From sequence record NC_100371.1: DNA of 64,000 bases; one strand, 5' to 3'. The DNA is from a phage. A program made the position numbers and the translations under genes. Shown here piece by piece: positions 4,096 to 36,863 of this stretch; positions within the stretch are counted from its first letter, which is position 1, and the number at the start of each line of letters is the position of its first letter. The notes under the pieces were generated by a model. It made no database searches, was not told the DNA's origin, and saw nothing but the letters and a program-made list of their open reading frames with translations.

Positions 4096-6873
4096 TTAGT
4101 GACAATCGCCCCAGTTACGACCGCACAAGTATTCACCTGTGATCTGGAACGGAACGCCCATCATTTTAGAAGCCTGCCAGAAGCAATGCACCACCATTTC
4201 GCCCACAGGGCTCCAGATAAGTTCAAGCTTTCCGTCATCATTCAAGATAGGATCATATACCGTATTTCCGTCCTTGTCAACCACTTCGTTTCCATCCTCA
4301 TCCTTGCGTGCCTTTTTGTACTTATGACCGTCGAACACATGAAGTTTAGCCTCCTGCTTGGCCTTAAATGTTTCCAGCTCTTCAATTGTGTCGAAGGTGT
4401 ATACGGTTTTATACTTAGGTGTGTCAGGCACTTGAAGCTGATATTCGTCATGGTAATAAATAATACGACGAACACCCTCATCATACCATCCACGCTTCAC
4501 CATCTGGTGGTGCATGAGTATCCCAACTAAGTCACACAATGATGCACCGCCATTTTGCTGGTATGCATTAAGCAAAGAGTGTTTAGAGCGGGTCCAAATA
4601 GCATGACCGTCAAAAGAGTAGATAAATTTCTTACCTGTTGCTTCCCAGAATTTCTCCAGATCCTCTTTGCGCCCCTTAAGACCTGGGTTGGCATCCCAGA
4701 GAGCATCGATTACTCTCTGCCCCAGTTCTGGAGAGATATCCAGCATATCTGCAACTTTATCTTTTTGTGCCCCATACATAACCCCATACGTGATAGGTTT
4801 ACCATCGTTACGAGACACCTCTCTACCTGCTACTTTTGTATATGCCTCAGCATTGTTTTGGTGCGCGTCCCCGTTACTTACAACATCATAATACAGACCG
4901 TTGTCAAACTCAAAGGCACCCCAGGCCCCGATGAGCTGCTCTAAGTTGGACCCGTCAATACCGATCTCAAAGTATCCCGGAGGAACACCCCACAGACTAC
5001 GCATCTCTTTACCCATAACCACTTTAGGAGATGGTTTAGGCATGTTTGCACAGATACTATGTTTCTGTCTGGAAGTGTTTGTTAATCCAGAACTTTTAGC
5101 AGGAAGCTTGTGGTCAATCTTCAAACGTGGATGATTAAGAAGACCAGTATCAACCTTATCTTCCTTGATTGGATCAAGGACCGATCTGCGGTTTCGCAAT
5201 GATAACCACAAAACGATATCTTTAGCCATCTCTCCGTTCAATTTTTCAAGATTCGGGCACAGGTGTCCAAACGTATCTTTCAGTTGCGGAGAAGTAATAA
5301 GCGCTCTGGCTTTTCTACGTATCTTCCCAAACACTTCCTTTTTAATCCTTTCTGAGTTAGGGAAGCTTCGGAACTTATGCACAGTTGTCTGGAACTTGGC
5401 ATCAGTTTTGTTCCAGAAGTTGATAATTAGATCACAATACTCTGACTCCAAAAGCTCGTCCATATATGCATATACGCGTGCATCAACATCTGCATCAGGT
5501 AAAGCTTTCTTCTTACTATCCTTAGTTACATCTTTAGTTCTCCACATTGTTGGGAGCCAACCAGCACTGATCAGGTATCGCTTGATGTCGTCCTGATTGC
5601 TGATTTTCATAGGTATCTTGCAGTCAGGCATTCGCTTCTGCTGCAGATCACTTATTGCCTGATCCATTAGCTCTTTAGGTAAAGGGTGTGGTGTAGAAGT
5701 TCCTTTGATATACCCCCTCAAGAAATCAGCCATCTTATCTGGGTCTTTACAGCCCATCTCTTCACACCATTTTATCCCCATTTTGCTGACATCTCCTGTG
5801 GAGGTAAATGCTCGCTTAGGTGGAGCTTTGAACTCTAAAGCACTCATGTCCACAGGATAGCCAAGCTTGTCTTTTAACCATTTCCAACCATTATTGGAGA
5901 TTGTCCCATCCTGGTTAAACGGCTTTTCAGGGAACTTAGGCCGCTGAGACATTGATAACTCTTTTAAAGGAAGCTGTGGTTCAACACGATCAGCGATCTC
6001 TTTCATCCACGCATCGCAACGGTCACGTAAAGCAATAGCCCCATCTATGTCGAAATACACCCCCTGTCGAGCCTGCAGCTCCATCAGGAAGTGCTGTAAC
6101 ATGCCTCGGCGTAATGCGTTCTTCCAGGTGATCTTCTTGAAGCCTTTCGGCTTCTCTTTGGCAGGATCGTACATAAAGTTCTGCATGTCAGATTTGCCGT
6201 AGAATACACCTTTTGATTCAGCTACCAACTCCTTCCAGAGCAACTCCTGAATGATAACGTCCTCGAACACACGATCCACATACTTCCACAGCGGAAGCTC
6301 ACGCCAGTCATCGATTTGAACTTTCTGGTTACCAAGGGCATAGCCCCATGCCATAAGGCCATGAGGCCCAACAGGCTGCATTTTCTTGGTAACTGGATTG
6401 AATACTGCGTCCGGACAACCTTTTGGCAAAGGGCGGTCAGGCCACAAGATTCTACTCATCGCTAACGTATCAAACAGATTAACCTGGTGGTCATTGATAG
6501 TTCCCATGCATTTAGGATCACGGAACATATCAAAATGAATACCGGATAATCTTTCCATCAGCATAAAGTCGTAACTGTAGCAGTTATGGCAGTTCAAAGC
6601 CGTAGGTGACCAGTCTGAATTGCCTGTAAGCCAGCCTTCCAACTCTGAAAAATCTGCTATGCGAGCCTCAAAATCTGTATAAAGGGTCTTCTTTGCCAGA
6701 ATGAAGTTCTTAGCTTTCTCCACATCCTCTTCAGAGTAGTGTGTGCGGTCATTTAGGGGAAGGAACAGCATAAAACGGTTCTTATTCAGCTCTTTAAACA
6801 AACCGCAGTGATAATAAAGATCTGGGTCTTCCAGCAAGCCAGAGGCCTCAAAATCGAACGACCACATGCTCAT
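4096..6873 (-). CDS. DNA polymerase, family A (Pol I-like) with N-terminal 3'-5' proofreading exonuclease
   Basis: 925 aa. Exo I-like FDFEASGL near N-terminus; Pol A motif A-like IGIDGSNLEQLIGAW, motif B RNDGKPITYGVMYG, motif C YYHDEYQLQV. AAGGAG RBS upstream of ATG. Confidence 0.9.
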   Translation of the reverse strand: MSMWSFDFEASGLLEDPDLYYHCGLFKELNKNRFMLFLPLNDRTHYSEEDVEKAKNFILAKKTLYTDFEARIADFSELEGWLTGNSDWSPTALNCHNCYSYDFMLMERLSGIHFDMFRDPKCMGTINDHQVNLFDTLAMSRILWPDRPLPKGCPDAVFNPVTKKMQPVGPHGLMAWGYALGNQKVQIDDWRELPLWKYVDRVFEDVIIQELLWKELVAESKGVFYGKSDMQNFMYDPAKEKPKGFKKITWKNALRRGMLQHFLMELQARQGVYFDIDGAIALRDRCDAWMKEIADRVEPQLPLKELSMSQRPKFPEKPFNQDGTISNNGWKWLKDKLGYPVDMSALEFKAPPKRAFTSTGDVSKMGIKWCEEMGCKDPDKMADFLRGYIKGTSTPHPLPKELMDQAISDLQQKRMPDCKIPMKISNQDDIKRYLISAGWLPTMWRTKDVTKDSKKKALPDADVDARVYAYMDELLESEYCDLIINFWNKTDAKFQTTVHKFRSFPNSERIKKEVFGKIRRKARALITSPQLKDTFGHLCPNLEKLNGEMAKDIVLWLSLRNRRSVLDPIKEDKVDTGLLNHPRLKIDHKLPAKSSGLTNTSRQKHSICANMPKPSPKVVMGKEMRSLWGVPPGYFEIGIDGSNLEQLIGAWGAFEFDNGLYYDVVSNGDAHQNNAEAYTKVAGREVSRNDGKPITYGVMYGAQKDKVADMLDISPELGQRVIDALWDANPGLKGRKEDLEKFWEATGKKFIYSFDGHAIWTRSKHSLLNAYQQNGGASLCDLVGILMHHQMVKRGWYDEGVRRIIYYHDEYQLQVPDTPKYKTVYTFDTIEELETFKAKQEAKLHVFDGHKYKKARKDEDGNEVVDKDGNTVYDPILNDDGKLELIWSPVGEMVVHCFWQASKMMGVPFQITGEYLCGRNWGDCH

Positions 6874-6931: not shown

Positions 6932-9010
6932 TTAAAAAGGTGTTTCGTCGTCTTCAAAACCAGGAACGTGGTTAGAGGACGGATCATCATACTGAAGATC
7001 TTCCTGTGTGTCAACAGGGTTAACAGCAGGAGTTATAACCTTATCAGCCACAACCTTGCCCACAGGTGTTTCTACAACTGCATGCTCCTGATCCTCAAAC
7101 ATAGCTTGAGGTCTCCAAACAACCTCTCCACCTTCCCCGTCTGTAAACATCTGCATCTCTTTATCCCAATACCAATTGCTGGCATCGTGGAACTTGCCTG
7201 TGTGGGGATCCATAACTAGGGTGTCCGCAATACCTAAGGTTTTTGCTGGGCGGTTTTTAAGACCTACCAGCCGGACACGCCCACGGGAACGATCCACCAT
7301 CTCCTCTGCCTCTACCCCGACAACCACCCAGCTAAGTTGCTCCAATCCGGCACTACCGCGAAGGTTCTCTTTTCGTACAGGGTACCAGAAAGGTAACGGA
7401 TTTCCATCCTTATCCTTCGGAGGTACAATCTCTGTGCGCTTCAGGTGAGCAATCACCAAGATAAACACATTAAACTGCTTACAGAACGCGGCTAGTTGAG
7501 TCATAGCCATGTCAAGCTCTTTACGCTCATCCTTAACATTAAGCCCTGAAATCACCATAGACAAGTGATCCAGCACAATGTAACGGCAGTGATACAGGCA
7601 CACCATTTGTTTAAGCTTAGTGATCAGCTCATCTACAGGGATGGAGCCGAAATGCTTGAACACTTTGATTTTTCCGGCCTTGGCCCAAGATTGATGAATC
7701 TCAGCGTGCTCCTGATCGGTCAGGAACTGACTGGGGTCTTCAACAAACTCTTTAACATCAAACCCCAGCTGGTTAGCGTACAGAGAGTTGATTGCTTCCT
7801 CTGGATCCTCTTCAAGATGAATCAGGCACAGGCGATCATCCTCTTCATAATCATCAGCTTTAGGGCATGTTGGATCCATCAAGTATCTTGCAATGCAGTG
7901 TTCCAGTTTCTTGGCTACAGTTGTTTTACCACCACCAGATGGGCCTGTCAGCATCATCAAGGTGCCTTTGTGGAGCCCTTTCAGCATCTTCTGCAATTTA
8001 GGGAACTCCGCACTGATATCTACGCCATTGGAAGTCTTCTTACGAAGAGATTCAATGGAGAAGTCTTCTAAATCAGATACAGCATCAGGCACATATTTGA
8101 CTGGGTGACGGAACATGTTGACAATATCTTCCAGCTTTTTAGCCTTCAGCATGTCACGGATATCTTTTACACCATCAGGGTCGTTTACCTCGCCAGGATA
8201 TTCCACGTGGTAAACGTTGTCAGCCATCAAAAATGCTGCGATATTATGTGTAGCTTCAACACCTTTGATAACGTGTTTTTGCTTCTCTACCTCGTTAGCT
8301 GCATCGTTGTCCATTGCAAGGACTACTGTTCCGTAGCTACGGATAAATTTCTCATTGTTCGCAAAAGTGTCTACGGCGTTTGCACACCCGCAGTTAATTC
8401 CGACAAAAGGCAGGCATGGTTTTCCTGCCAGATCACCGCCGTTGATAACTGCATCAATCCCATCCTGGACTTCTTTAGCCCACTGCTTCACCTTCGCTGG
8501 GGCTTTAGCATTGGTGAGAATTCCTTTTACTTGTACCTGATATGCAGCCTGCCACGCTGCAATAACATCTCCTTCCCCCTCACAAACGTTAATCTGCTTG
8601 CGGTTGTTGGAGGATGCACACAGCTTTTGACCAAACATCTGGGAGTTGGCCTTTACTATGCCGACAACCGAGAAATGGCCCCTTTGCTCTTTAGGGATTG
8701 TCCAGTCCCGCTTTTTAAAGCCGGATAGATTACCGTAGCGGTCATAGTACGGGAAGTAGGTGGCAGTAACAGTTACACCATCCTCTTGGGATAGGGATGA
8801 TCGTACACCAAAATATTGTGCAGCCATCAGTCCAATATTTTGTTGTGGAACAGGGACAATTTTAGTGTTTTCTAAAACAGTCTCCACAGTTTCAACTTCT
8901 TTTTCATCACGATAGTCTCGTTTCACACTTCCCCCACTTTTATACTTAGTTGCTTTCGGGTTTGGCTCACCGAAACGGTTGTATGCAGATGCCATGAATT
9001 TACTGCCCAT
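6932..9010 (-). CDS. bifunctional DNA primase (TOPRIM) / replicative helicase, T7 gp4-like organisation
   Basis: 692 aa. TOPRIM signatures (VCEGEGD ... LAMDNDAANE) in N-terminal half; Walker A MLTGPSGGGKTT plus DnaB/gp4-like helicase region in C-terminal half. AAGGAGA RBS 7 nt upstream of ATG 9010. Confidence 0.85.
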   Translation of the reverse strand: MGSKFMASAYNRFGEPNPKATKYKSGGSVKRDYRDEKEVETVETVLENTKIVPVPQQNIGLMAAQYFGVRSSLSQEDGVTVTATYFPYYDRYGNLSGFKKRDWTIPKEQRGHFSVVGIVKANSQMFGQKLCASSNNRKQINVCEGEGDVIAAWQAAYQVQVKGILTNAKAPAKVKQWAKEVQDGIDAVINGGDLAGKPCLPFVGINCGCANAVDTFANNEKFIRSYGTVVLAMDNDAANEVEKQKHVIKGVEATHNIAAFLMADNVYHVEYPGEVNDPDGVKDIRDMLKAKKLEDIVNMFRHPVKYVPDAVSDLEDFSIESLRKKTSNGVDISAEFPKLQKMLKGLHKGTLMMLTGPSGGGKTTVAKKLEHCIARYLMDPTCPKADDYEEDDRLCLIHLEEDPEEAINSLYANQLGFDVKEFVEDPSQFLTDQEHAEIHQSWAKAGKIKVFKHFGSIPVDELITKLKQMVCLYHCRYIVLDHLSMVISGLNVKDERKELDMAMTQLAAFCKQFNVFILVIAHLKRTEIVPPKDKDGNPLPFWYPVRKENLRGSAGLEQLSWVVVGVEAEEMVDRSRGRVRLVGLKNRPAKTLGIADTLVMDPHTGKFHDASNWYWDKEMQMFTDGEGGEVVWRPQAMFEDQEHAVVETPVGKVVADKVITPAVNPVDTQEDLQYDDPSSNHVPGFEDDETPF

Positions 9011-9764
9011 TAATTCTTCTCCTTACTGCAGGCTCGTTTGCTAAGAATACAGCTCTTGCCCAGCCACGTGGTGTAAGGCTTCGAATCATCTTCGTCCTTG
9101 CGCTCTTTCCACCTAGCTTAGCGTGTTGCATGGAATAACCACTAACCACATCAACTATTTGCGGGACAGGCTTTGTGGCAGGGATTATAAATCCATTGCC
9201 TATCCAACCGCAAGTTATTTTTGGGTAGGCATCCCGTGGAGCTATAAATTCAGGAAACCAGGGGTTTACATCATCCTCCGGTAAATACCCGCCATAATCT
9301 GAAGGATGAAAACGGTAATCAGGTTTTCGCCACAGTGTTGACATAACTCCTACAGGGTTCTCTACATGCCACGGGCAATCGTAAATCTCTCCCAACTCTT
9401 CTGCAACCCGAGCATCTTTCACAGCATTAATTTGGATCAGAGGATCCTTAGCCAGCTTTTTCTTAAAGTGTGCAGCTCCGGATACTGCTAAATGCGTGCA
9501 CGGAGGGAATGCAAGAATAAAGTCTGGAGCTGGATACATGCAAAAAGTTTCTTGAGGGAACCATGGATCAATCCAATAATCCACATAGTGAATGTTAGGA
9601 TGATCTGTTATCACCTCTGCATAACTGCCGTGGTCAGCACCTTCTGCATTAAAGCACAGGCACAGGTACCCAGCTTTTGCCCAGTCAATAACTGCACCAC
9701 CCGACCCGTCAAATAGACTCCACACAACACCTTTGTGGTAGTGTTCTTTGTAGATAAATTTCAA
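9000..9764 (-). CDS. putative DNA (cytosine-5)-methyltransferase-like protein
   Basis: Motif I-like VWSLFDGSGG, motif IV-like AFPPCTHLAVSG, motif VI-like HVENPVG in canonical C5-MTase order. ORF-track start (GTG 9794) lies inside a hairpin; TTG at 9764 with GGAGA RBS is preferred. Short for a C5-MTase (~255 aa). Confidence 0.5.
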   Translation of the reverse strand: MKFIYKEHYHKGVVWSLFDGSGGAVIDWAKAGYLCLCFNAEGADHGSYAEVITDHPNIHYVDYWIDPWFPQETFCMYPAPDFILAFPPCTHLAVSGAAHFKKKLAKDPLIQINAVKDARVAEELGEIYDCPWHVENPVGVMSTLWRKPDYRFHPSDYGGYLPEDDVNPWFPEFIAPRDAYPKITCGWIGNGFIIPATKPVPQIVDVVSGYSMQHAKLGGKSARTKMIRSLTPRGWARAVFLANEPAVRRRINGQ

Positions 9765-11067: not shown

Positions 11068-12411
11068 TTACTCTAAATCTTCTTCTGAGTCAAGCTTATC
11101 TTTCATAACTAAGTTCGGGGCAAGTTTGTAATAGCGAAAGCCCCCGCCACCTTGCCAGTTTACAGATTTAGAAATACCACTTTGATCTTCGCCATCGATC
11201 ACTTTTTGCAAGCGCGGGATGATATGGGTATGACAATGATCACCTAACTCGACAGAGATCCAACGTCTTTTCATCTTGTGAGCTACAGCAGCAGTAGTTC
11301 CTGAACCGCCGAATGAATCCAAGACTAAATCTCCTTCTCGCGTACACATTTCGAAAATTCGCTTCAAAAGCGCTTCGGGCTTTTTTCCATTTTTGAAACT
11401 AACGCCGCCTTCATTTGCTATTCCATTCCAACTAATGTCGGTCCAAACATCAGTTATTAGTTCAGCAGGCTGCATCTCACCGTCAATTTCCAAAAGCCTA
11501 TTGGAATAAAAGACCATTTGCCTACCATTTGCGATATAAAAGCCTTCGACATCCTCATTTGGATGTACATAAACCTTATCCCTATCTTTCTTTGACTTCT
11601 CGATAGTTTCTTTTCTCTTTATTTTGGCACCACCACCAATTGCAACGGATTGAAATACACGTTCTGCATTATCAATTGCAAATTGTGCTAATTCATCATC
11701 AAATGTATCAGGAAGTTTTTTCTTGGCTTCTTTTGCATCCTTATATCCATTGGCCTTTGCAAACGCATCGGCAATACCGCACCACGTCCAACTTTTATAA
11801 TGGTCATCTGGGTTTAATAGATATTTGTTATATCCCGTATCATACTCTTTAGGTATATAGATTTTGTTAAGTGGTTTCTTGGTACGATCTTTTGCATATA
11901 CAAGCAAAAAGTTTGCTGTGGAGAAAACTGTAGTTCCTGTTGCCTTAAAGCCTGAAGGGCAATTTGTAGTCATCGATATGGTATTTAACTGATTTGCACG
12001 ACCAAAAATCTCGTCCATCAAGACTTTTAAATAAGCCATTTCGCAGTCATCTAAGTGAACGAATATCACTCCATCATCGCTTAGCAGATTACGAATTATT
12101 TCTAATCTGTCCCGCATTAAGCCCAGCCAAAGGGAGTGCTCCAGGCTATCATCGTAGTGCTCAAAATCCCTTCCGGTATTGAATGGCGGGTCTATGTAAA
12201 CACACTTCACTTTGCCTGCATACTCTTGCTCTAGTGCCTTCAATGCCAGTAAGTTATCTCCAAAAATCAGTTTATTATCAAAAATATCGTTTTCGGTCAC
12301 CTTTTTACTGGCGTGATAAGACTTGCTCGAATCTTCTAACAAAATGTGAGGCTCTAGCTTTTTGCGCTCGTTCTTACCTATCCAGGTAAGTTCTAATTTG
12401 GTTTTACTCAT
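11068..12411 (-). CDS. DNA methyltransferase, beta-class N6-adenine/N4-cytosine (N6_N4_Mtase-like)
   Basis: 447 aa. Catalytic motif IV VYIDPPFNTG precedes SAM-binding motif I DSFGGSGTTAAVA (circular permutation typical of beta-class amino-MTases). AAGGAGAG RBS upstream. Confidence 0.85.
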   Translation of the reverse strand: MSKTKLELTWIGKNERKKLEPHILLEDSSKSYHASKKVTENDIFDNKLIFGDNLLALKALEQEYAGKVKCVYIDPPFNTGRDFEHYDDSLEHSLWLGLMRDRLEIIRNLLSDDGVIFVHLDDCEMAYLKVLMDEIFGRANQLNTISMTTNCPSGFKATGTTVFSTANFLLVYAKDRTKKPLNKIYIPKEYDTGYNKYLLNPDDHYKSWTWCGIADAFAKANGYKDAKEAKKKLPDTFDDELAQFAIDNAERVFQSVAIGGGAKIKRKETIEKSKKDRDKVYVHPNEDVEGFYIANGRQMVFYSNRLLEIDGEMQPAELITDVWTDISWNGIANEGGVSFKNGKKPEALLKRIFEMCTREGDLVLDSFGGSGTTAAVAHKMKRRWISVELGDHCHTHIIPRLQKVIDGEDQSGISKSVNWQGGGGFRYYKLAPNLVMKDKLDSEEDLE

Positions 12412-12472: not shown

Positions 12473-12814
12473 CTACTCAAGGTCTTCAGAGTCAAGCTCA
12501 AAAAGAATCAAACTGTGCATGCCTGCAGAGAGATCAACACACCCTGCAACAATAAGGGTTTGATAGTAAGGTTCAGCACCCTCAATATCTTCGTTAAAAT
12601 CCACAACAAGGTAGTCACCTTTGTTAAAGGTGTATTTGTCCGATGTAAACGCAAAACCTGCCCAGTCCCCTACTGCAGGATCTTTATCAGTCACCTTTGT
12701 TAGCAGTAGATCTTTTTCACGAGATCTTTTAGTAAAATCGTGAATCACAACATCCTTCTCTTCAGGAGTCGGATTGCCACACACGTAGTTAACGATATTT
12801 CTCCACAAACTCAT
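12473..12814 (-). CDS. hypothetical protein (113 aa)
   Basis: Co-oriented ORF; ATGA overlap with the upstream gene. Confidence 0.45.
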   Translation of the reverse strand: MSLWRNIVNYVCGNPTPEEKDVVIHDFTKRSREKDLLLTKVTDKDPAVGDWAGFAFTSDKYTFNKGDYLVVDFNEDIEGAEPYYQTLIVAGCVDLSAGMHSLILFELDSEDLE

Positions 12815-13458
12815 ACGTCCCCCTTTTCTGCTCTAGTTTCAAAATCTTTCCTGACTTTCTCGTCTAAACCAGGGAAAGTTGTATTATAAAACTCTACGAC
12901 TCTCGGGTCAACAATAATATCCACCTCTCTTAATGGACGCAACAAGTTTATTCCTTGTATCGTCTTAACCCGACTCAAGGCAACATACGTCATTCCGGGA
13001 GAGAAAGCTCCGTTCTTTCCGAGGTCTAGGTTGTAACAATCTAACGTAAGTCCTTGACTTTTATGCGATGTTACTGCGTACCCAGATTTCAAAGGAAGTT
13101 GCTCATAAGACCCGATCACAACCCTCTCTATGAACTTCTCCATCTTCCTTTCGGCAATATTGTACCTCTGGGAAGGTTTGTACTCGTTATTCTCCCACAA
13201 TCTCGGCTCAATTTCAACCTGTGTCCCGTCTTCCAGCTCAACCACCACAGACTTGGTCTTGAATTTTACCACTGTGGCTCGTGTCCCGTTGACATAGTAC
13301 GGAACTTTGTGTGTCGGGTCAACATCGTTTGAGGTTATCATAACCTTCATCCCTATCTTCAGCCTCATTTCCTGCTCCACAGGTAGTGTGGAAGGGAACT
13401 TACCTTTCATTTTACCAATGTAGGTCTTCTCTGGGGCCTTGATGGCATCATAGAAACG
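12811..13458 (-). pseudogene. Pif1/RecD/Dda-like SF1B helicase, C-terminal part (frame-shifted relative to the N-terminal part)
   Basis: Contains helicase motifs V/VI (VTSHKSQGLTLD, TYVALSRVKT). This frame is open upstream to 13458 and overlaps the end of the N-terminal ORF in a different frame. Confidence 0.7.
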
Positions 13459-14179
13459 TCATCACCTCCTCTGCTTGCTTATTGGTGGCACAGATGGTCA
13501 AGGCATCTGTTGGGACACCACCATGATAGCAACGAGTGTTAAGCTCTGCTACAACCTCTTTTATGCGACGACCTTCACGAACACAGTTCAACATTGTGGC
13601 GAAGCGAACAGATTCCTGACGGAACTGGTCTACTAATGCTATGTTGTGAAGATTAAGATCCTCCCAAGATTCTGTATAGCAACACAGATCTGTGTGGTAG
13701 AAGTTGAAGTAGGCTTCTTTCTCCATAGAAGAGACAACTGGAGGTGCTTGGTAGAAATCTCCAAACAATAACACCTGAATGCCTCCGAAAGGTTTGTCAT
13801 TTTTCCGAAGAAAGCGGAGTTTTCTATCCATCTCTATGAACTTGTCAGCACGGATCATAGAGATTTCATCGATAATCAGGATGGTAAATGCCTTGCTTTT
13901 CAGAGGCTTTGCTGTTTTTGCCCTTATTGCTGTCCAGTCTGACTCCATGCTCACACCTGCGGCAAGATCGAAAGTTCGGTGCGCTGTTGCTCCATTAACG
14001 TTTAAAGCGGCTACCCCTGTCGGGGCAACCGTTATGCAAGAGTCTCCATACATGGACTGGATCATGTTGATAAGATATGTCTTCCCGGTTCCACCAGGTC
14101 CACTTACGAAGACATTCTCACCGCTCATGATTGCAACAAGGGCAGCATCTGTGCCTACATCGTACTGCCCTTTTTCCAT
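13448..14179 (-). pseudogene. Pif1/RecD/Dda-like SF1B helicase, N-terminal part
   Basis: Walker A GPGGTGKT, motif II LIIDEISM, motif III LLFGDFYQAPPV; ends ...ATNKQAEEVMTFL and continues in another frame as the C-terminal part. Confidence 0.7.
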
Positions 14180-15420: not shown

Positions 15421-17377
15421 TCAGTTCACGGTATTCAATCATAGCAGGAGTGTCCCAATATTTCAAGCCTACATGCTTCAAAAGTGGATATTTCTTTTCC
15501 AATCTTGCAATATAGGCCTTCCCGCACTTAACCCGGTTGGCGATTAAGATTTTGGCACGATGATTTAGCTCACCGTACTTCCACGTGGTGCTACCTTCCC
15601 ACTTGTGGAAATGTGGCCGATAACTTCCAAAATCCTGCATGGGGATAATTTTACCTAACTGTCTGTACAGGTTGTCATATGAAGTTTCATTTGCTGCGCG
15701 AGTTAGTAAGAATTTCCAAGCATCCTCTTTCAACAAATGTTCCACATTCTTCTCTGTAACATATTGGCAATCAGGATCAGTCCAAAGCAGACGAGATTCC
15801 GACACCAGGTACAGATCTTCCCCTTCAGGAATCTGGAGTGCCGCACGCACACGGTCATAATCTTGCTGGTAGATGTTGCTCATCTGCCCTAGCCAACAAC
15901 TTCCGCGTTGGATATCCCCCTCATACGGTATGCAGTGCTTAATCTTCCTGAACTCTGCCTTAGTAATACGCTCACGCCGGAAGTAACCATCCTTCTCAAG
16001 TTTTTTAACCCAATAGCCTGGTTCGTAACGGGTTTTGGTTTCACCTTTCTTCGTAGGTCGGCGTGGAAGCTCCGATAACAATTTGACCGTATCTGCAAAA
16101 AACGGATGGTGTGCCGCCTCTTTAAACTCTTTCACCAGATCCGTGTTACGGCAATAGAAAACGTTGCGTCCGGTAATCTCGCTTAAGTAGTTACACTTAT
16201 TCCGGTTATATTTGCCGTCTCCGTCGTTAAATACTAAATAAACTCCCCGTAAGAATTCTACCTTTCCGTAGCAGGCGTAACCTATGCGGCCTTTATTTAA
16301 GCCGCCAGCGAAGATCTCGCAGTCCCCCAAATTTCCTAGCCCTGTTTCTTCCCAGCGGTCATACATAAAATTCTTACCGAAGATGTGCCCGAACACTCCA
16401 CTGTTCTTCATCATCTCGCGTGCTTCTGAGGATGTTTTTGCTGTCTCCAGTTCTGCAACAACTTCTGCTCCACGAAGGCGAATGCCTTCTTTGACAAAAG
16501 CTTCCAAACGCTCTTGGAATCCACCATCGTCGTGACCTTCTATGGTCCATTCACGCCCTGGGTTAATATTGCAATCTCCGATAGGGATCTCTACACAAAT
16601 TGCAGGATAATCTATTAGTGTCTCCAGGAACTTAGAACGGTAAGGTTGGTGACCCATTACCACACGACTCTCGTCAGAGCTGGTATAACCCTTCAGGATG
16701 GTCATCTTCCAACCATCTTTTTCATAATAATACTGCGCCTCTACTTTGTCTCCCTCCAGCATCTTGCTCGTCATCGGGTCGGTGACAGTGAACGGAAATT
16801 TTGCATAGCGCAGGCATGATGCAATAGCGGTGCGATATTTCAGAACATGCTCTTTCTTAACATGAAACTGAACTTTTACCCCGTTGTGCTCTTCAGTCTT
16901 CCGCTCACGGATCTTGGTGACATTTGGGATACCCTGGTCCAAGAACAATAGGTATGTGCTTTCCACACCGTTGTGCACACTGATTACATCGAAAGTGTCC
17001 ACCATGCTGAACGGGGCCTTTGAACCAACACCTTTATTGCCTACCAGAGCGTTGCTGTTGCGCTTGGTCGACTCACCGAGGTTCATGAAAGTGTTACGGA
17101 CCATCTCTTCTGACATGCCTAATCCAACGTCCTGCACAAAGAAGTATGGTTCAAGGTCTGTAGGAGAGTGAATGATGATCGGAACATCACCCCGTCCAGA
17201 CTCAACATGGGAGTCCACAGCATTGAAGATCGGTTCACGGCAGCTTGCCAGTACCTTATCTTCATAAATCCCTTTGATGATTAGCCCAAAAGTCTCTTTG
17301 TTCAGAGAAATTGATCCCCTGGTTACCTCCATATTCCCAGTTAGCACCGCTTTAGTTTCATTGCTGTTTACAATCAT
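15395..17377 (-). CDS. GHKL-superfamily ATPase (Hsp90/MORC-like ATP-binding domain) with ~450-aa C-terminal region of unknown function
   Basis: 660 aa. N-terminal Bergerat-fold motifs: REPIFNAVDS (N box), DVGLGMSEEM (G1), GNKGVGSKAPF (G2). Confidence 0.65.
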   Translation of the reverse strand: MIVNSNETKAVLTGNMEVTRGSISLNKETFGLIIKGIYEDKVLASCREPIFNAVDSHVESGRGDVPIIIHSPTDLEPYFFVQDVGLGMSEEMVRNTFMNLGESTKRNSNALVGNKGVGSKAPFSMVDTFDVISVHNGVESTYLLFLDQGIPNVTKIRERKTEEHNGVKVQFHVKKEHVLKYRTAIASCLRYAKFPFTVTDPMTSKMLEGDKVEAQYYYEKDGWKMTILKGYTSSDESRVVMGHQPYRSKFLETLIDYPAICVEIPIGDCNINPGREWTIEGHDDGGFQERLEAFVKEGIRLRGAEVVAELETAKTSSEAREMMKNSGVFGHIFGKNFMYDRWEETGLGNLGDCEIFAGGLNKGRIGYACYGKVEFLRGVYLVFNDGDGKYNRNKCNYLSEITGRNVFYCRNTDLVKEFKEAAHHPFFADTVKLLSELPRRPTKKGETKTRYEPGYWVKKLEKDGYFRRERITKAEFRKIKHCIPYEGDIQRGSCWLGQMSNIYQQDYDRVRAALQIPEGEDLYLVSESRLLWTDPDCQYVTEKNVEHLLKEDAWKFLLTRAANETSYDNLYRQLGKIIPMQDFGSYRPHFHKWEGSTTWKYGELNHRAKILIANRVKCGKAYIARLEKKYPLLKHVGLKYWDTPAMIEYRELIDTKNNIK

Positions 17378-17874
17378 TTATTGCGCTCCTTGTAGTAGAT
17401 ATGACTCCCGAATTGAGCTGTCCTCTGCATCTTTTTTGCCCATTTCGGTCGTACTTTTGTTGTATGGTAGTGTGTTGCTCCACCTGTTATATCCATAGCC
17501 ATGTATGCAACATGGTTGTTATTATAAACCTTTAGAAGCATCTTTGCAAGACTTTTAGCGTGATCCCATGAATCTTTTTCTGTCACCTTAAAAGTTTTGC
17601 CGTGGTTTGTCCACGAAAACTGGTTAGGTTGGTAGACAATCTTTCTTATAGTGTCTGGGTATTTGGGGTGAGATTTCCTGTTTAGTGTGGCAAATCCGGA
17701 TGCCAGCATCCCCATCGTGCCATCCCCTCTAGCCTCCCTGTAGATATTGCATGCTAGAATGTTTTCCTTAGTATCCGACGGCTTGCAAGTGTGATATACT
17801 TTTTGTTTTGGTGCTGCAACAACAGGCAGCGATAAAAATGCGCTCAAAATAATAGCAAAGATTTTAATTTTCAC
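17374..17874 (-). CDS. secreted SleB/CwlJ-family cell-wall hydrolase (candidate signal-peptide endolysin)
   Basis: 166 aa, GTG start with GGAG RBS. N-terminal signal-peptide-like MKIKIFAIILSAFLSLPVVAAP; SleB/CwlJ signature ACNIYREARGDG ... LNR ... QPNQFSW. Confidence 0.75.
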   Translation of the reverse strand: MKIKIFAIILSAFLSLPVVAAPKQKVYHTCKPSDTKENILACNIYREARGDGTMGMLASGFATLNRKSHPKYPDTIRKIVYQPNQFSWTNHGKTFKVTEKDSWDHAKSLAKMLLKVYNNNHVAYMAMDITGGATHYHTTKVRPKWAKKMQRTAQFGSHIYYKERNK

Positions 17875-17894
17875 AATAGCTCCAAATAGAAAAT

Positions 17895-17910
17895 CCCCGC
17901 CGAAGCGGGG
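17895..17910 (-). terminator. intrinsic terminator (UUCG-loop hairpin)
   Basis: Minus-strand RNA CCCCGC-UUCG-GCGGGG followed by AUUUUCUAUUU; same 16-mer as at 44316-44331. Confidence 0.55.
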
Positions 17911-17923
17911 TGTGTCTTAGAAA

Positions 17924-18304
17924 TTAATCGTAGTGTGCCAAAATCTCTCCATCGTTGCAAGTCCCCTCTACGAAGTTGTGAAGATTCATGCATTCATCTT
18001 GATAGAAGAATTTACCGCTTTTCAGCCGTAGACCAAACAACTCCGCATCTCCACGATGGCAAGCCTCTACAAGTTCATAGATTTCATACGGTAATTCCCC
18101 ATCGTCATGGAAGAACCCCGCTTTATCGTTGACATAGATGAAGAAATAGTCACTGCTGTCGCAAGCGTCCAGTATTTTAAACCAGATTTCATCCACATCT
18201 TTTTCTCGGATATCGATCACACAAGTGGAGCTGCATTCGTACTCCTTCTCCGGCTCCTCGGTCAATACCACTAGGTAGTTTCCCCGCTTACCTACTTTAG
18301 CCAT
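17924..18304 (-). CDS. hypothetical protein (126 aa)
   Basis: Co-oriented ORF followed by a terminator hairpin. Confidence 0.45.
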   Translation of the reverse strand: MAKVGKRGNYLVVLTEEPEKEYECSSTCVIDIREKDVDEIWFKILDACDSSDYFFIYVNDKAGFFHDDGELPYEIYELVEACHRGDAELFGLRLKSGKFFYQDECMNLHNFVEGTCNDGEILAHYD

Positions 18305-18313
18305 ACAACCTCC

Positions 18314-19498
18314 TCAAGCTTTAGCTAAAATGGCGCTAAACTCTTCACCAAACTCTTTTACAATCTTCATCAGGTTTGGGTATGCTTTGATCAGCTGAGC
18401 AACGATCTTGTCCCTGCCTTTACCAATAAGTAAGGCATTTCCTAAGGCGTTAGGTTTCATCATCGCCATAAAGACTGAGAATACAAAGTCTCGGTTCTCA
18501 TCCTTGAAATTTTCCCAAAGGAAATCAAGGAAGTTTGCCACACAGCTGACGAGATCTTCGTCGGAGATACTTGCATTTTCCATCATATTACGAATAGCGA
18601 TACAACCTTCAGACCCCAGAATCCACAAGATGTCTGGCTGCTTAGGACCTACATATTCTTTGCAGCCTCCTGCCATAATCCGACCGATTTCTGGCAAGTT
18701 TCGTTTCTTGGTGTGGTAGGTCCAAATTTCTACCGCTGCAGTGTGACCAATTGCACCTTGTAGAAGGACACGGGCCATAGCGTCAGAAATAATACCGCTG
18801 TCAAAATCGTGCAGGATGTCAGATGCAGCAACCCAAGATCGCGGTGTAGCAAAAGATGGACAATTAATCTCAGCCATGGCCTCATAATTATCGATGGCTG
18901 ATGGGACTCTTTTCAGATATCCAATTACCGAGGAGTGCACCCCATTAAGGAATGCATAGTCCTCAATAAACACCTCTGCACTGCTTGTAACTTCTACAAT
19001 GATAAAGCGGTTAGCTAGAGGAGCTTCGAGCGCCGAAAGAACAGCACCGTCTGTAGCACGGTTACCTGCAGCTACAAAAACAGAGCCCTTAGGAAATGCA
19101 TAGGTGCCGCACTTGTGGTCGAGCATAATTTGCATTGCAACCTTCTGCAGGTAGTTATCTGCATGAGTAAGCTCATCTAGAAAGATAATTCCGCTCCAGT
19201 CCGGATCTGCAGGCCAAAATTCTGGAATTGCAAACACTGTGCGTGTAGTCCCATCCGACTCTACAGGGATAGGTAGCCCAGATAAGTCAGCAGGATCTTT
19301 ATCTGACAACCGCACGTCAACCAGGTTGTCATCTCGCTCACCGAACATATTATCAGCAATCTGCTTCATCACCTGGCTCTTCCCCACGCCCATCGGTCCT
19401 AAAATCAGGACAGATCGGTTATGACGCTGGGCAAATTGAATAATAGCTGGCAACTCGCGGACAGTGATTTGACCACTTTCGAATACGTTTCTTGACAT
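18314..19498 (-). CDS. MoxR-family AAA+ ATPase (AAA_5; CobS/RavA-like)
   Basis: 394 aa. Walker A ILGPMGVGKS, Walker B IIFLDELTHA, sensor/arginine region AAGNRATDG ... ANRF typical of MoxR/CobS AAA+ proteins. Confidence 0.8.
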   Translation of the reverse strand: MSRNVFESGQITVRELPAIIQFAQRHNRSVLILGPMGVGKSQVMKQIADNMFGERDDNLVDVRLSDKDPADLSGLPIPVESDGTTRTVFAIPEFWPADPDWSGIIFLDELTHADNYLQKVAMQIMLDHKCGTYAFPKGSVFVAAGNRATDGAVLSALEAPLANRFIIVEVTSSAEVFIEDYAFLNGVHSSVIGYLKRVPSAIDNYEAMAEINCPSFATPRSWVAASDILHDFDSGIISDAMARVLLQGAIGHTAAVEIWTYHTKKRNLPEIGRIMAGGCKEYVGPKQPDILWILGSEGCIAIRNMMENASISDEDLVSCVANFLDFLWENFKDENRDFVFSVFMAMMKPNALGNALLIGKGRDKIVAQLIKAYPNLMKIVKEFGEEFSAILAKA

Positions 19499-29148: not shown

Positions 29149-32100
29149 TTAAAGAGAGAAAGTCGCGTAGGCTCCCAGACGATACTGCTGGTCACCAGGG
29201 AACATAACACCTATAGAGGCTGTCCCTAGAATCCTGCCTTCCTTTCCAGACTCCATTCTGAACCCTACCCATCCTGAACTCCTTGCAGCCTCGATGTTGT
29301 CGCTATACCCGAAAGTGGCAAGATCGTCAACACCAGCCCCAAACAGCAACTGAAGCTGACTTCTCGGAAGCCCTATAATTTCAGGAATATATGCACCAAA
29401 GTACACCATCTGCCCTACCTTAGGACCGCTGCCGTACTCCATCGGCTTGCTTGTAGCAAAAGTCTTCATACCAGAAGTCCCTGCCGGATTAGGGTATGCC
29501 CCGTTTGTTGCTGTACCTATCCACATTCTCCACTGTGGTGTCATCTGTTTGACAGTAAAAGATGTTGAAGACGTTTTGCGACCTGCATCATCAGTAGCTA
29601 CAAACTTTATAGTGACATTACCAGGAGCTTTAAATGTTACCAGCCCTGTGGTAGCATACACTGTTGCAATGTTGGTATTACTGCTTTCCCAAGTCTTTCT
29701 AATCCCAGACACATTGGAAGGGGTAATAGAAGGTTCCTGCATCTGCAGTTTACCACCCACAATCCCTATGCCGTTACCTGGGTTATACAACGCACCAACT
29801 TCATCTATAATGTTACCTGCCTTGAGACTGTACTTCCTTGAGAAGTTGTAAGTTCCGTTATAAGCGTGTGTCCCTGAGAAGGTGACATCTGCTTTTCCGT
29901 AAGAGATGCAAACCAAAGCATACTTCCTGTCAGGCAACGTTTCTCCAGTCTCTGGGTGAGTTTTACCTACCTGGAACACACTCGGGTCAGTGGAGTCGTG
30001 GCTATCACTAACGGAGCTTGGACCACCCATCAGTTGTGACAAGCAATTCCTTACCCATGTCCAGTTATTGTCACTGGAGAAGTCTACGGTCAAATCAAAC
30101 ACAACCCACTCATTTGGCTTCCACACAGGTGTTGTGATCAACTTACCAACACCCCCACCCTGAAGAGTAGGAGATTGTTCAGTGATCAGGGCAGAGTATG
30201 CCAGAGTGCCCAACTGCATAGTCTGGCTTGCTGTCCTCACTACCTTAGAATCAGCATCTGTGAAGTTGTTGATGATCTGGAATGTGCCATAAGTGTTTTT
30301 ACAGGTAATTCTGGCGTTCAGTGTGTCAATCTTCCTCACATCTGCCATAGCAGTGTTAGACACAGAGAAGTCAGAAGCTTTAGCTGAGTTTGCCGCAACA
30401 GCAGGATCAACGTTAAGAGTTGCGTTGAACTGACAAGCAGGGGTAACCAGCAGCTTGTTATCACCTATTTGCTTCCATGAAACACTTTGAACAGGGAGAT
30501 TCCATTTAATACCTGAGAAAACTTTAGCAACCCTTGGTCCCAGGGCTCCAGTCCTGTTGTCTTTACAGCACATGGACATGGTGATCGTTGACGGAGTTGC
30601 CTGACCAAACAATTGCTGTGCTTTTGCAGAGGACATAGTGTAGAAATTGTCCTTAACAAACTCATCAGCCGCTAACGATCCGTCAGATCTCCACCATTGT
30701 ACCTGGTATCCTGTCTTATCCCAGCCACCAACCTGCTTCAAGTCCTCCCAAGAGATTTCCAGATCCCCAGTGGTAGGGTTGATTGCCGCAGTTCCTGGTG
30801 TTCCAGATGACCATATTGGGATATCGAACCACGCTGGTTTAACAGACTGCACTGCGTTAGGTCCTATTGCAGCAGCAAGTTGTTGACCCATCAATACGCG
30901 AGCATCTTTCACCAGGCCCCACTCAATCATAGATCCAGAGTAACCCTCTTTCTTATATGCAGAGGACCCGTTCAAATGGATGAGCCTGCTGCAGTCGAAG
31001 CCATACGCTCCACCACCATTAGGGTCTGCGAAGTTAGTTATGATTCTATCCCTAATATTTTTCCATGCCCTACCCCCAATCTCGTAGTCATGGTCATAAC
31101 ATCTTTGCAGCGTTGTCCAGCAAATGATTGCCATTCTTCTGCCACCTGTAAACCCGAAAGCGCCGTCATTCAACTCTTTCCACAGGTAGCAGTTAGTTGT
31201 CCACATAGCTCTGTGAATGTTGAACCAGTTTATGGACTTGGCTGAGTTATCCCACTGAGTCCCAGGTAATTCAGGCCACACTGCATTAACCAGCATGTCT
31301 TCTGTTCCTGCATCAACCAAGAACCCTCTTACCTTTTTACCCATGCCTACCCTGTCTTTTGCAATCCAACTGCCAAACAATCTCAGTTTTGGACCGTAAA
31401 CAACATCTTCCGGATGCTCAAAAGAGACATACTTTAAGTAGATTGTTGGGTCACCGTAGGTGCCATCACAAACACTTTTGTGCATGTTTTCGCCAAGATC
31501 TAGACGAAGCCCTGTCACCACTTTAGACGTGTCAGTGAATTTGTCTGTTAAATCAAATTCATACCACCACCATCCACCACCAAGCATAAATTTCTTGCAT
31601 CGAGTATTGTCTGTATCAGATATTCTCTTATCCCCTGCAAAAGGTGAATCAGCAAACTGATAATGCAGAGCAGTCTCGAATAGATGTGTTGAGGTTCCGT
31701 TTTCTGCAAGAACTTGCTTACCTATTAAGTCGCACTTAATGATCATCACAACACGTTTGTACCCGTTTGTTACTGGAACTTGCATAGATATGGATGTTCC
31801 GTCCATGTTCGATCTTAGTGCTGTCATGATGATATATGGGTCAACAGCGTTGCCTAAAGTTTCAGGCCCTGGGATTATCTTGTACTTCTTAACCTGCCCC
31901 ATGAACCTGTCACTGGCGTAAGTTGCAGCCTCAAAGCAAGATCCTCCATTAGGCAGTTCGCCAGGACCCCAGAAAAATGCGCCATAACAGTTATAAAACC
32001 ACTTGTTAGGGTCGTATTTGTTCTTGAAGGTCTGAACCTCGTTAGCCTGTTTTGTCAAGAAAACCTGCGTATCTGTAAAGATTGCAGGATTTACTCTCGC

Positions 32101-32883
32101 CTGACGTTGAGGGTACCCTGTCGATTGGTTAAACCACTGATTACAAGAGTAATCTCTCATATAGTCATAATCAGAGTATTTGTTTGCATCTTCGTTCCAA
32201 CACATATTTAGGTTGGTACCGCCCATGCACACAATGTATTCTGCGATATACTTATCGCTTCTGGTAGGAATACCTATGAACCATCTATTAACAGGCTCAT
32301 CCCAAGCTGTGCGCTCATCTTTAACGCAGATAGCAATCCAGTCATGTGTTCCTGTTTTCTTGCATACATCTCGCTTCATACCGTAGTAGAACTCTTTAGT
32401 ATTCGGCTCAGGTGCATTTATCAGGTAACTCCATGCCTGATTTGCATAAGTTCCATTGGTTCGCGGGTCATGATCAAAGGCATACATGATGATCCTTTCC
32501 CCACCAAGATGTTCGCCAAGAGTAACTTTGACATTCACATCGCCGTAACCATTGCGAACAACATCCATATTATCAATAGAGATGCCCCTAGGGGTGTAGG
32601 CAATTTTCAGAGAGCTATCTTCACTGGTGCCTCCAAGTGTAATCCCTATGTTGTTTGTTGTCCCGTCGGCATATCTTACTGTGGCTTCCCAGCGTATTCC
32701 GAAATATCCTGCATCATGGCTGACAATTTTCAGTGTACGAGCACCTGGGTGAGGTTTTCCAGGATCAGGCCAAGGGTCTGGGTGTTCGTGGACAGTCAAC
32801 GACGTTCCGTTTTGCTCGTTAACCTGCAACATTTTACCGCCTCTGCCGTTAGGGTTGAACTCCCATACGGCCTGTGTCTGCAC
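29149..32883 (-). CDS. large virion-associated protein with C-terminal Big_2-like Ig domain (putative distal fibre/adhesin)
   Basis: 1244 aa; last gene of the tail operon. Ig-like Big_2-type segment (ITPSNVSGIRKTWESSNTNIATVYATTGLVTFKAPGNVTIKFVATDDAGRKTSSTSFTV). Confidence 0.55.
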   Translation of the reverse strand: MQTQAVWEFNPNGRGGKMLQVNEQNGTSLTVHEHPDPWPDPGKPHPGARTLKIVSHDAGYFGIRWEATVRYADGTTNNIGITLGGTSEDSSLKIAYTPRGISIDNMDVVRNGYGDVNVKVTLGEHLGGERIIMYAFDHDPRTNGTYANQAWSYLINAPEPNTKEFYYGMKRDVCKKTGTHDWIAICVKDERTAWDEPVNRWFIGIPTRSDKYIAEYIVCMGGTNLNMCWNEDANKYSDYDYMRDYSCNQWFNQSTGYPQRQARVNPAIFTDTQVFLTKQANEVQTFKNKYDPNKWFYNCYGAFFWGPGELPNGGSCFEAATYASDRFMGQVKKYKIIPGPETLGNAVDPYIIMTALRSNMDGTSISMQVPVTNGYKRVVMIIKCDLIGKQVLAENGTSTHLFETALHYQFADSPFAGDKRISDTDNTRCKKFMLGGGWWWYEFDLTDKFTDTSKVVTGLRLDLGENMHKSVCDGTYGDPTIYLKYVSFEHPEDVVYGPKLRLFGSWIAKDRVGMGKKVRGFLVDAGTEDMLVNAVWPELPGTQWDNSAKSINWFNIHRAMWTTNCYLWKELNDGAFGFTGGRRMAIICWTTLQRCYDHDYEIGGRAWKNIRDRIITNFADPNGGGAYGFDCSRLIHLNGSSAYKKEGYSGSMIEWGLVKDARVLMGQQLAAAIGPNAVQSVKPAWFDIPIWSSGTPGTAAINPTTGDLEISWEDLKQVGGWDKTGYQVQWWRSDGSLAADEFVKDNFYTMSSAKAQQLFGQATPSTITMSMCCKDNRTGALGPRVAKVFSGIKWNLPVQSVSWKQIGDNKLLVTPACQFNATLNVDPAVAANSAKASDFSVSNTAMADVRKIDTLNARITCKNTYGTFQIINNFTDADSKVVRTASQTMQLGTLAYSALITEQSPTLQGGGVGKLITTPVWKPNEWVVFDLTVDFSSDNNWTWVRNCLSQLMGGPSSVSDSHDSTDPSVFQVGKTHPETGETLPDRKYALVCISYGKADVTFSGTHAYNGTYNFSRKYSLKAGNIIDEVGALYNPGNGIGIVGGKLQMQEPSITPSNVSGIRKTWESSNTNIATVYATTGLVTFKAPGNVTIKFVATDDAGRKTSSTSFTVKQMTPQWRMWIGTATNGAYPNPAGTSGMKTFATSKPMEYGSGPKVGQMVYFGAYIPEIIGLPRSQLQLLFGAGVDDLATFGYSDNIEAARSSGWVGFRMESGKEGRILGTASIGVMFPGDQQYRLGAYATFSL

Positions 32884-32934
32884 TAAGTTGTTGTAGGTAT
32901 TTCGTCTCTGATCATAAATCTCTTGGGTAACATC

Positions 32935-36588: not shown

Positions 36589-36780
36589 TTAAGCTTTTTG
36601 CTCTTCGTTTTTAACGTGGTCAGGGTGCTGGCAACCCCACCGGAGCGAGATGAATTTGCTAATAAGCTGGGGGCAGGCTACTGAAGGTGCGTATATCCAC
36701 GCATACCATTCAGGAAGCGTATCATTGTACCCCATATGAATAAACACCCCAGTCATCACTGCCATGCCTATGTAGACCAT
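36589..36780 (-). CDS. questionable small ORF (63 aa) with hydrophobic N-terminus
   Basis: Only ORF in a 284-bp gap; no convincing RBS. Confidence 0.2.
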   Translation of the reverse strand: MVYIGMAVMTGVFIHMGYNDTLPEWYAWIYAPSVACPQLISKFISLRWGCQHPDHVKNEEQKA

Positions 36781-36863
36781 AGCTTAGATTGGGACACTTT
36801 CGTAGGGTCATCCGATGCCGCAACCAACCCCCATAAAAACTGAGTTAATTTCATTTACCCTCT

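Follow-up and report, generated by a model that had tools for sequence, protein, structure and literature searches.

Bacterial Pif1 helicases, for which structures have been solved from Sulfurihydrogenibium (SsPif1, 8BNS), Deferribacter (DdPif1, 8BNV), Bacteroides (5FTB/5FHD) and Thermus (6S3E), are SF1B enzymes with a 1A/2A/2B architecture. Their motifs I–III lie in domain 1A and their motifs IV–VI in domain 2A; nucleotide binds in a pocket between the domains (PMC9964779). A signature motif with the consensus DKLeXvARaiRKqXkPFGGIQ followed by LI or LV has been described as unique to Pif1 (PMC6144861). T4 Dda and the phage family PHROG 325 ('Dda-like helicase') offer a second point of comparison: there, as in the locus described here, a phage SF1B accessory helicase stands beside a separate replicative primase-helicase.

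More than 100 Vequintaviruses have been sequenced, and from them the gene considered here, annotated as 'RecD-like' or 'Dda-like', is already known, as are the family it belongs to and its genomic setting. Examples of orthologues at the same position, with 97–99% nucleotide identity, are the helicases of FV3 (YP_007006388.1), B9-1 (WEM32719.1), S127 BCL3 (WGL32934.1) and ECP32 (QDB73830.1). Theirs is a single 1371-nt ORF, whereas the sequence examined here has a T in place of ACA and is divided over two frames.

The 64,000 nucleotides of phage DNA that we analysed (hereafter the window) come from a Vequintavirus, that is, an rV5/FV3-like E. coli myophage – nearly all of the 142 phage records that match the region are Vequintavirus. 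Over the helicase gene the closest relatives, at ~99% identity, are ECP32, NHEP1, B9-1, S127 BCL3 and Aya; over the wider window B9-1 is 97.7–98.1% identical. The helicase sits in an operon of rIIA, rIIB, helicase and a small ORF, upstream of an adenine methyltransferase gene (11068–12411), and all annotated relatives share this order with the helicase as one CDS of 1371 nt (456 aa). The features of the broken gene are as follows.

12811..14179, minus strand: Pif1-family SF1B accessory helicase gene with a broken frame, 1369 nt against 1371 nt (456 aa) in relatives
13448..14179, minus strand: ORF1, 243 aa from ATG 14179, ending in ...ATNKQAEEVMTFL and a stop (longer tail ...ICATNKQAEEVMTFL and a stop)
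13461, minus strand: the lesion, a single gene-strand T (A on the plus strand) replacing ACA, net −2 nt by alignment to relatives
13448..13450, minus strand: premature TGA of ORF1, four codons past the lesion
12811..13458, minus strand: C-terminal frame, native residues 243–456, with the rest of 2A, a putative 2B SH3-like insertion, and motifs V and VI

The helicase motifs at 14179..12811 on the minus strand are split over two frames but colinear, and mark an SF1B helicase gene of the Pif1 family. The initial annotation had listed these motifs from the DNA, and all of them are there in order: GPGGTGKT, IIDEISM and GDFYQAPPV in ORF1, TSHKSQG and YVALSR in ORF2. Frame mapping likewise bore out the overlap of the two ORFs at 13448–13458, and the proposal of a single helicase gene of ~450 aa when fused agrees with the one 456-aa ORF of relatives. 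ORF1 comprises native residues 1–240, then the out-of-frame residues M, T and F, a coincidental L, and the stop. It holds domain 1A, with motifs I, Ia and II, the Pif1 signature motif and motif III, and the first ~54 aa of 2A with motif IV (F186-R-Q). The C-terminal frame is +1 relative to ORF1; it is open from CGT 13458 to the stop at 12811, begins with RFYDAIKAPEKTYIGKMKGKF... (RFYDAIKAPEK...), and is shut directly upstream of 13458 by two TGA codons (13464–13459). Its first ATG, at 13410, opens a reading frame of 199 aa (ORF2).

Consistent with a Pif1-family protein, ORF1 scored 118.7 bits against the Pfam PIF1 model (PF05970; cut-off 25.9), compared with 117.1 bits for the intact ECP32 orthologue. 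ORF2 gave sub-threshold Pfam matches only, to the Pif1 2B domain and a helicase C-terminus; its putative 2B SH3-like insertion scored 17.7 bits against Pif1_2B_dom (cut-off 23.9), and this region aligns unbroken to 2B of 8BNS and 8BNV. On the PHROG 325 profile, ORF1 corresponds to positions 466–710 (E 1e-55) and ORF2 to positions 724–909 (E 9e-47). Since these stretches of the profile are adjacent, the two ORFs represent neighbouring pieces of one protein. The intact orthologue matched solved bacterial Pif1 helicases over its full length (E 3e-65 to 1e-53), the best match being SsPif1 8BNS (E 3e-65), where residues 19–433 align with residues 21–428 of the structure.

Motifs I, Ia, II and III in 1A and motifs IV, V and VI in 2A are colinear and align with their counterparts in SsPif1 and DdPif1, motif IV being the FRQ found in ORF1. 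Between motifs II and III lies the Pif1 signature, IEMDRKLRFLRKNDKPFGGIQ-VL, in which the PFGGIQ loop is complete (6/6) and R8, R11, K12 and K15 match; over the whole motif 10/21 positions are identical, with the helix part divergent. The PDB search gave 20 sequences at E ≤ 1e-3, none of them a chain named Dda or RecD2, and the strong matches were all to Pif1. The latter, together with the presence of the signature loop, sets the phage protein apart from T4 Dda. Because of the Pif1 matches in the PDB search and the complete PFGGIQ loop, 'Pif1-family' is, judged by sequence, a more precise label than 'Dda-like', which as applied to PHROG 325 is a broad family name. The helicase had been called 'Pif1/Dda-like'; the Pif1 half of that name stands and the T4 Dda half does not, no PDB chain of that name having been matched at E ≤ 1e-3. 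With bacterial Pif1 the protein shares the SF1B motifs, the PFGGIQ loop and probably the 1A/2A/2B architecture, but it has at most ~35–40% identity to those enzymes and is a phage-encoded minimal core that lacks a C-terminal extension, WYL or other. Its helicase function is predicted and, unlike theirs, its gene is broken in this window.

The initial annotation had placed the break beside a TTT run (13456–13454) and spoken of a possible 1-nt indel. Alignment to relatives corrected both points: the lesion lies 5 nt upstream, at 13461, and is a replacement of three nucleotides by one, ACA>T. Relatives read GAGGAGGTGA-ACA-GACGTTTC at the junction and the window reads GAGGAGGTGA-T-GACGTTTC, so that the span 13457–13465 is GTGAACAGACG in its intact form and GTGATGACG in its lesion form. 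A homopolymer slip at the TTT run is ruled out by the same alignment, in which the change lies 5 nt upstream of the run and does not alter the length of a homopolymer.

This lesion is private to the sequence examined. All ten relatives that we fetched (10/10) have an uninterrupted 1371-nt ORF without internal stops. A 161-nt junction query matched 115 records, and 60 rows, taken at even steps through the ranking, all showed a match of the query length plus 2 (60/60). A 33-mer specific to the lesion had zero exact matches in three public collections (viral, metagenome and genome), and no look-up match is on record for the truncated 243-aa product. A two-ORF arrangement with independent RBSs in related phages, put forward earlier as the mark of a genuinely split gene, was present in 0/10 fetched relatives and in 0/60 of those sampled from the 115.

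To place the lesion in time, we repaired the frame in silico. The resulting protein is identical to those of B9-1, S127 and EI-SP-GF, with 15 synonymous and 0 non-synonymous codon differences, and the 2 substitutions in the helicase gene that are private to the window are both synonymous. A search of the repaired gene for relaxed selection, the sign of an old pseudogene, found 0 private non-synonymous changes and a single disabling lesion. Only synonymous changes having accumulated in the repaired gene, the lesion is therefore either very recent or artefactual.

We also examined the quality of the record as a whole. Compared with B9-1, the 64 kb contain 12 indel events, which are mostly intergenic, in-frame, or paired in divergent stretches, and none of the 12 is a homopolymer frameshift within a gene. 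Of the 61 CDSs of B9-1 that were compared, the window has 58 in intact form. Across 45 genes (31.8 kb) that could be aligned gap-free to four relatives, private substitutions comprise 90 synonymous and 10 non-synonymous changes, a non-synonymous share of 10% compared with 19–24% in the four relatives. Given the few indels, the intact CDSs and the low non-synonymous share, the sequence is, by these comparisons, accurate at base level and appears naturally evolved. A generally low-quality assembly is ruled out by the 12 indel events, the 58/61 intact genes and the 90% of private changes that are synonymous. One further candidate for a broken gene, a truncated DNA methyltransferase at 9000–9539, was rejected; an upstream TTG/GTG leaves its ORF open, the situation also seen in S127 and NHEP1. 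B9-1 annotates a later start for this methyltransferase.

Two other genes in the window carry private knock-outs.

36589–36854, minus strand: gene for an 88-aa membrane protein, PHROG 1322 ('moron'), with AA>T on the gene strand at 36775, net −1 nt
29149–34785, minus strand: 1878-aa Ig-like/Big2 gene, with TAT replaced by the amber codon TAG at codon 617 (32937–32935)

At the 36775 lesion, 40/40 sampled relatives are 1 nt longer, and a 61-mer spanning the amber site had no exact match in any relative. The helicase and 36775 lesions share a rare signature, in which several bases are replaced by a single gene-strand T (ACA>T and AA>T), and their contexts are alike (GGTGA[ACA]GACG and GGTC[AA]ACATAGG). 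Both the Ig-like/Big2 gene and the 'moron' membrane-protein gene look accessory.

Three explanations had been offered for the broken frame: a sequencing or assembly error, a recent pseudogenisation, and recoding. The first two survive our analysis; the third does not, as relatives have no frameshift, the Shine-Dalgarno (SD) element is mis-spaced and there is no RNA structure. We consider the likeliest reading, by a little better than an even chance, to be that the phage stock which was sequenced carries a real and recent loss-of-function mutation. This reading is favoured because the record is clean, because an amber substitution occurs elsewhere, and because the three knock-outs all fall in plausibly accessory genes. 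Counting against it are the two frame-breaking lesions with the same rare signature, which would be unusual for independent spontaneous mutations, and the conservation of the helicase across the Vequintavirinae.

If the mutation is real, ACA>T (net −2 nt) at 13461 would shift the frame after codon 240, and translation would end four codons on. The expected product would be a 243-aa fragment with the Walker A/B ATP-binding domain 1A and motif IV, without motifs V and VI and 2B. Because the ATP site of SF1 helicases lies between 1A and 2A, this fragment is predicted to have no helicase activity. The accessory nature of the gene would explain why its loss is tolerated: a DnaB-like primase-helicase of the phage's own is encoded at 6932–9010. 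T4 Dda, an analogous helicase, is dispensable, and by analogy the helicase may be dispensable in rV5-like phages. What the analysis shows is the identity of the gene, the lesion with its private and recent character, and the want of recoding signals; a real mutation rather than an error in the record, and a dispensable gene, are what we infer.

There is a slight chance that the knock-out was selected, for instance as an escape from a host defence that senses the helicase. Searching the literature for Vequintavirus helicase frameshifts or escape mutants gave nothing relevant, and the frame break is a one-off lesion without sign of selection. The sole mention that we came across in the literature is that a Hachiman variant protects against Vequintaviruses.

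Ranking a close second to a real mutation is an error in the record, in which the lesion arose in consensus calling, assembly, polishing or a later edit and the phage itself has an intact 456-aa helicase. We regard this as a serious possibility, short of an even chance. It would account for a lesion that is unique among relatives and public collections, and for a repaired ORF with zero private amino-acid changes, as an intact gene would show. The 36775 lesion, with its 'several bases to one T' signature and similar context, suggests one systematic cause, and the shared signature hints at a common technical origin. That such errors occur in this group is illustrated by Alma (OV101294), which has a different 1-nt deletion in the same gene and a split rIIB as well; its broken genes point to poor assembly, and so show that poor assembly does break helicase and rIIB genes in these phages. 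The window, however, otherwise resembles a high-accuracy assembly, with no homopolymer frameshift in any gene and 12 indel events relative to a 97.7%-identical relative, and 90% of its private substitutions are synonymous. Nor is a complex 3-to-1 replacement typical of short-read or homopolymer errors, and the remaining private knock-out is simply a base substitution that creates an amber codon.

A third reading keeps the lesion and restores the protein at translation. Here, a leaky or programmed +1 slip at UUU_C (13456–13453) would yield a 455-aa helicase (…EEVMTF-YDAIK…), aided by the slow codon CUA, the nearby UGA and the SD-like GGAGGUGAU; the junction peptide of the product would be ...AEEVMTFYDAIK. 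Since the shift is confined to the four codons ACG UUU CUA UGA (13459–13448), the relevant elements are few.

13465..13470, minus strand: AGGAGG (extended as GGAGGUGAU, 13469–13461), SD-like, encoding E-E-V, 8 nt 5′ of UUU and present in relatives too
13454..13456, minus strand: UUU codon followed by C, the only site in the 4-codon window for P-site +1 re-pairing, with CUA and UGA after it

Some properties of this site would favour a shift. tRNA-Phe could move from UUU to UUC with perfect pairing; CUA, the zero-frame codon that comes next, is used infrequently in the window's genes (5.9 per 1000 and 8% of Leu codons); and a 9-nt anti-SD complement lies close upstream. Frameshifting that can 'correct' problem indels is described in a recoding review (PMC5009743). 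The site also recalls the +1 frameshift of RF2 (prfB), which has an upstream SD-like element, a +1 change and a zero-frame UGA nearby. It differs from RF2, where the stop adjoins the shift codon (CUU_UGA), in that the shift codon is apart from the stop, the SD element lies 8 nt rather than 3 nt away, and the site is unconserved and made by a private lesion. SD stimulation calls for a spacing of 3 nt for +1 and 9–14 nt for −1 shifts (PMC5009743), so the hexamer at 8 nt is mis-spaced for +1 stimulation.

The frame change is, moreover, absent from 10/10 fetched relatives and from 60/60 sampled of the 115, and nothing can therefore have been selected for frameshifting. Apart from the lesion, the apparent signals belong to ordinary coding sequence, which intact relatives have in identical form, and TTT with a C after it is found in frame 45 times across the window's genes. 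RNA downstream of the junction folds no better than shuffled sequence (z = −0.97), and the junction has no homopolymer long enough for transcriptional slippage. A scan of the window for tRNA genes, as a possible local source of a CUA decoder, found none, a result that is uninformative on frameshifting. Programmed recoding is thus unsupported for want of conservation, and we consider a functional +1 shift very improbable; in silico analysis leaves room for low-level accidental slippage. That the context created by the lesion, GGAGGUGAU-GACG-UUU_CUA_UGA, would let a useful fraction of ribosomes slip +1 into a near-native 455-aa helicase has, in our estimate, a slender chance of being correct. 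If true, the +1 slip at UUU_C would be a natural and newly arisen translational 'correction' of an indel.

The last reading, which we regard as most unlikely, is a functional split helicase, in which ribosomes would produce a 243-aa N-terminal polypeptide and, by termination-reinitiation, a ~199-aa C-terminal one, and the two would come together as an active enzyme. All motifs are kept across the two fragments, and a relay of starts and stops could link the ORFs.

13407..13451, minus strand: chance 14-codon mini-ORF in the third frame (MMPSRPQRRPTLVK and a stop), its ATG overlapping the ORF1 stop (ATGA) and its TGA overlapping the ORF2 ATG (ATGA)

The mini-ORF starts at ATG 13451 with a strong SD sequence 9 nt upstream, and a relay from there to ATG 13410 could yield some C-terminal fragment. 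This relay is chance sequence, however, and is identical inside the intact genes of relatives, which indicates that it did not evolve for reinitiation; the two-ORF arrangement itself is found in none of the ten fetched relatives and none of the 60 sampled. ATG 13410 is preceded by AGAGAAGACCTACATTGGTAAA and has no SD, whereas true starts nearby have GAGGAGG, AAGGGGGA or AAGGAGA. An internal promoter for ORF2 was also considered and rejected, as promoter-like matches on the minus strand (13322–13294 and 13217–13189) lie downstream of ATG 13410 and their total is near the shuffle expectation.

The position of the break argues against reassembly as well. In the structure-sequence alignment, the motif IV aromatic of SsPif1, Y186, aligns with phage F186, and since F186 lies in ORF1 the break after V240 falls ~54 residues inside the RecA-like domain 2A, past motif IV and ahead of the putative 2B insertion. 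A break at the boundary of the two RecA-like domains is thereby ruled out. Neither fragment has a whole 2A domain, and native residues 241–257 are missing from both. An evolved split gene is accordingly not supported by these sequence comparisons.

For annotation, a disrupted helicase gene is the fitting entry for this locus (pseudo, or 'frameshifted; verify with reads'), in preference to a pair of hypothetical proteins or a recoding site, and the three private knock-outs in one window are a flag to re-check the record or the stock. The helicase is kept across the Vequintavirinae, including phages of Klebsiella, Erwinia and Proteus, at 60–80% identity, and this conservation indicates that it matters in nature. 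Should the lesions prove real, they would be a hint that an rV5-like phage can be propagated in the laboratory without the Pif1-like helicase, the Ig-like protein and the small membrane protein.

Besides the lesion in its Pif1-family helicase gene, the window carries a second frame-breaking lesion that is private, that is, present in the window and absent from the relatives compared. It lies at 36775, within a gene for a small membrane protein:
36589-36854, minus strand: 88-aa membrane protein (PHROG 1322, 'moron' category)
On the gene strand, GGTC-AA-ACATAGG in relatives becomes GGTC-T-ACATAGG in the window, a net loss of one nucleotide, and a stop arises two codons past the lesion. At this site all sampled relatives (40/40) are longer than the window by 1 nt.

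The helicase and membrane-protein lesions resemble one another as a pair:
13457-13465 and 36771-36782, minus strand: paired complex replacements
Both exchange several bases for a single T and adjoin an A-rich ..A-ACA.. stretch, the contexts being GGTGA[ACA]GACG in the helicase gene and GGTC[AA]ACATAGG in the membrane-protein gene. This likeness in sequence may reflect one common cause, for example a consensus artefact or a specific mutational process. The artefact could arise, for example, at a modified-base motif; the phage encodes an adenine methyltransferase:
11068-12411: phage-encoded adenine methyltransferase

A private nonsense change was observed in a large gene:
29149-34785, minus strand: Ig-like/Big2-domain protein, 1878 aa
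Codon 617 reads TAG (amber) in place of TAT (window 32935-32937), and the top matches to this site among 115 relatives agree at 60 of 61 bases.

Two regions differ in annotation from the related phage B9-1. We rejected a lesion in the following ORF:
9000-9764, minus strand: DNA (cytosine) methyltransferase-like ORF
The frame can be read from a TTG/GTG start lying upstream, matching the annotation of the related phages S127 and NHEP1, and the B9-1 annotation covers only the last 540 nt. The region 17374-19498 (minus strand) contains three clear ORFs that are annotated in S127 and NHEP1 and have no CDS in the B9-1 annotation:
within 17374-19498, minus strand: cell-wall hydrolase/endolysin-like ORF, 166 aa
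within 17374-19498, minus strand: ORF of 126 aa
within 17374-19498, minus strand: MoxR-like AAA ATPase ORF, 394 aa

The DNA polymerase gene differs in NHEP1:
4096-6873: DNA polymerase
Its CDS spans 3747 nt in NHEP1 (PQ511146.1, 4468-8214), whereas the window, B9-1 and S127 each have a CDS of 2778 nt. The NHEP1 gene therefore carries an in-frame insertion of ~970 nt, which the window lacks; an intein or a homing endonuclease fusion could account for it.

Sixteen GenBank records bear the name 'Campylobacter phage' (host C. jejuni) and share 88% identity with the query region, as do the E. coli rV5-like phages in the same list. This suggests that hosts were wrongly assigned in that dataset or that coliphages contaminated it. 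In the related phage Alma (OV101294.1, 416-2991), the helicase has a 1-nt deletion at alignment column 374, different from the window's lesion; the adjoining rIIB is annotated as two pieces, and the record looks like a low-accuracy assembly. Broken helicase versions in databases can thus have a technical origin.
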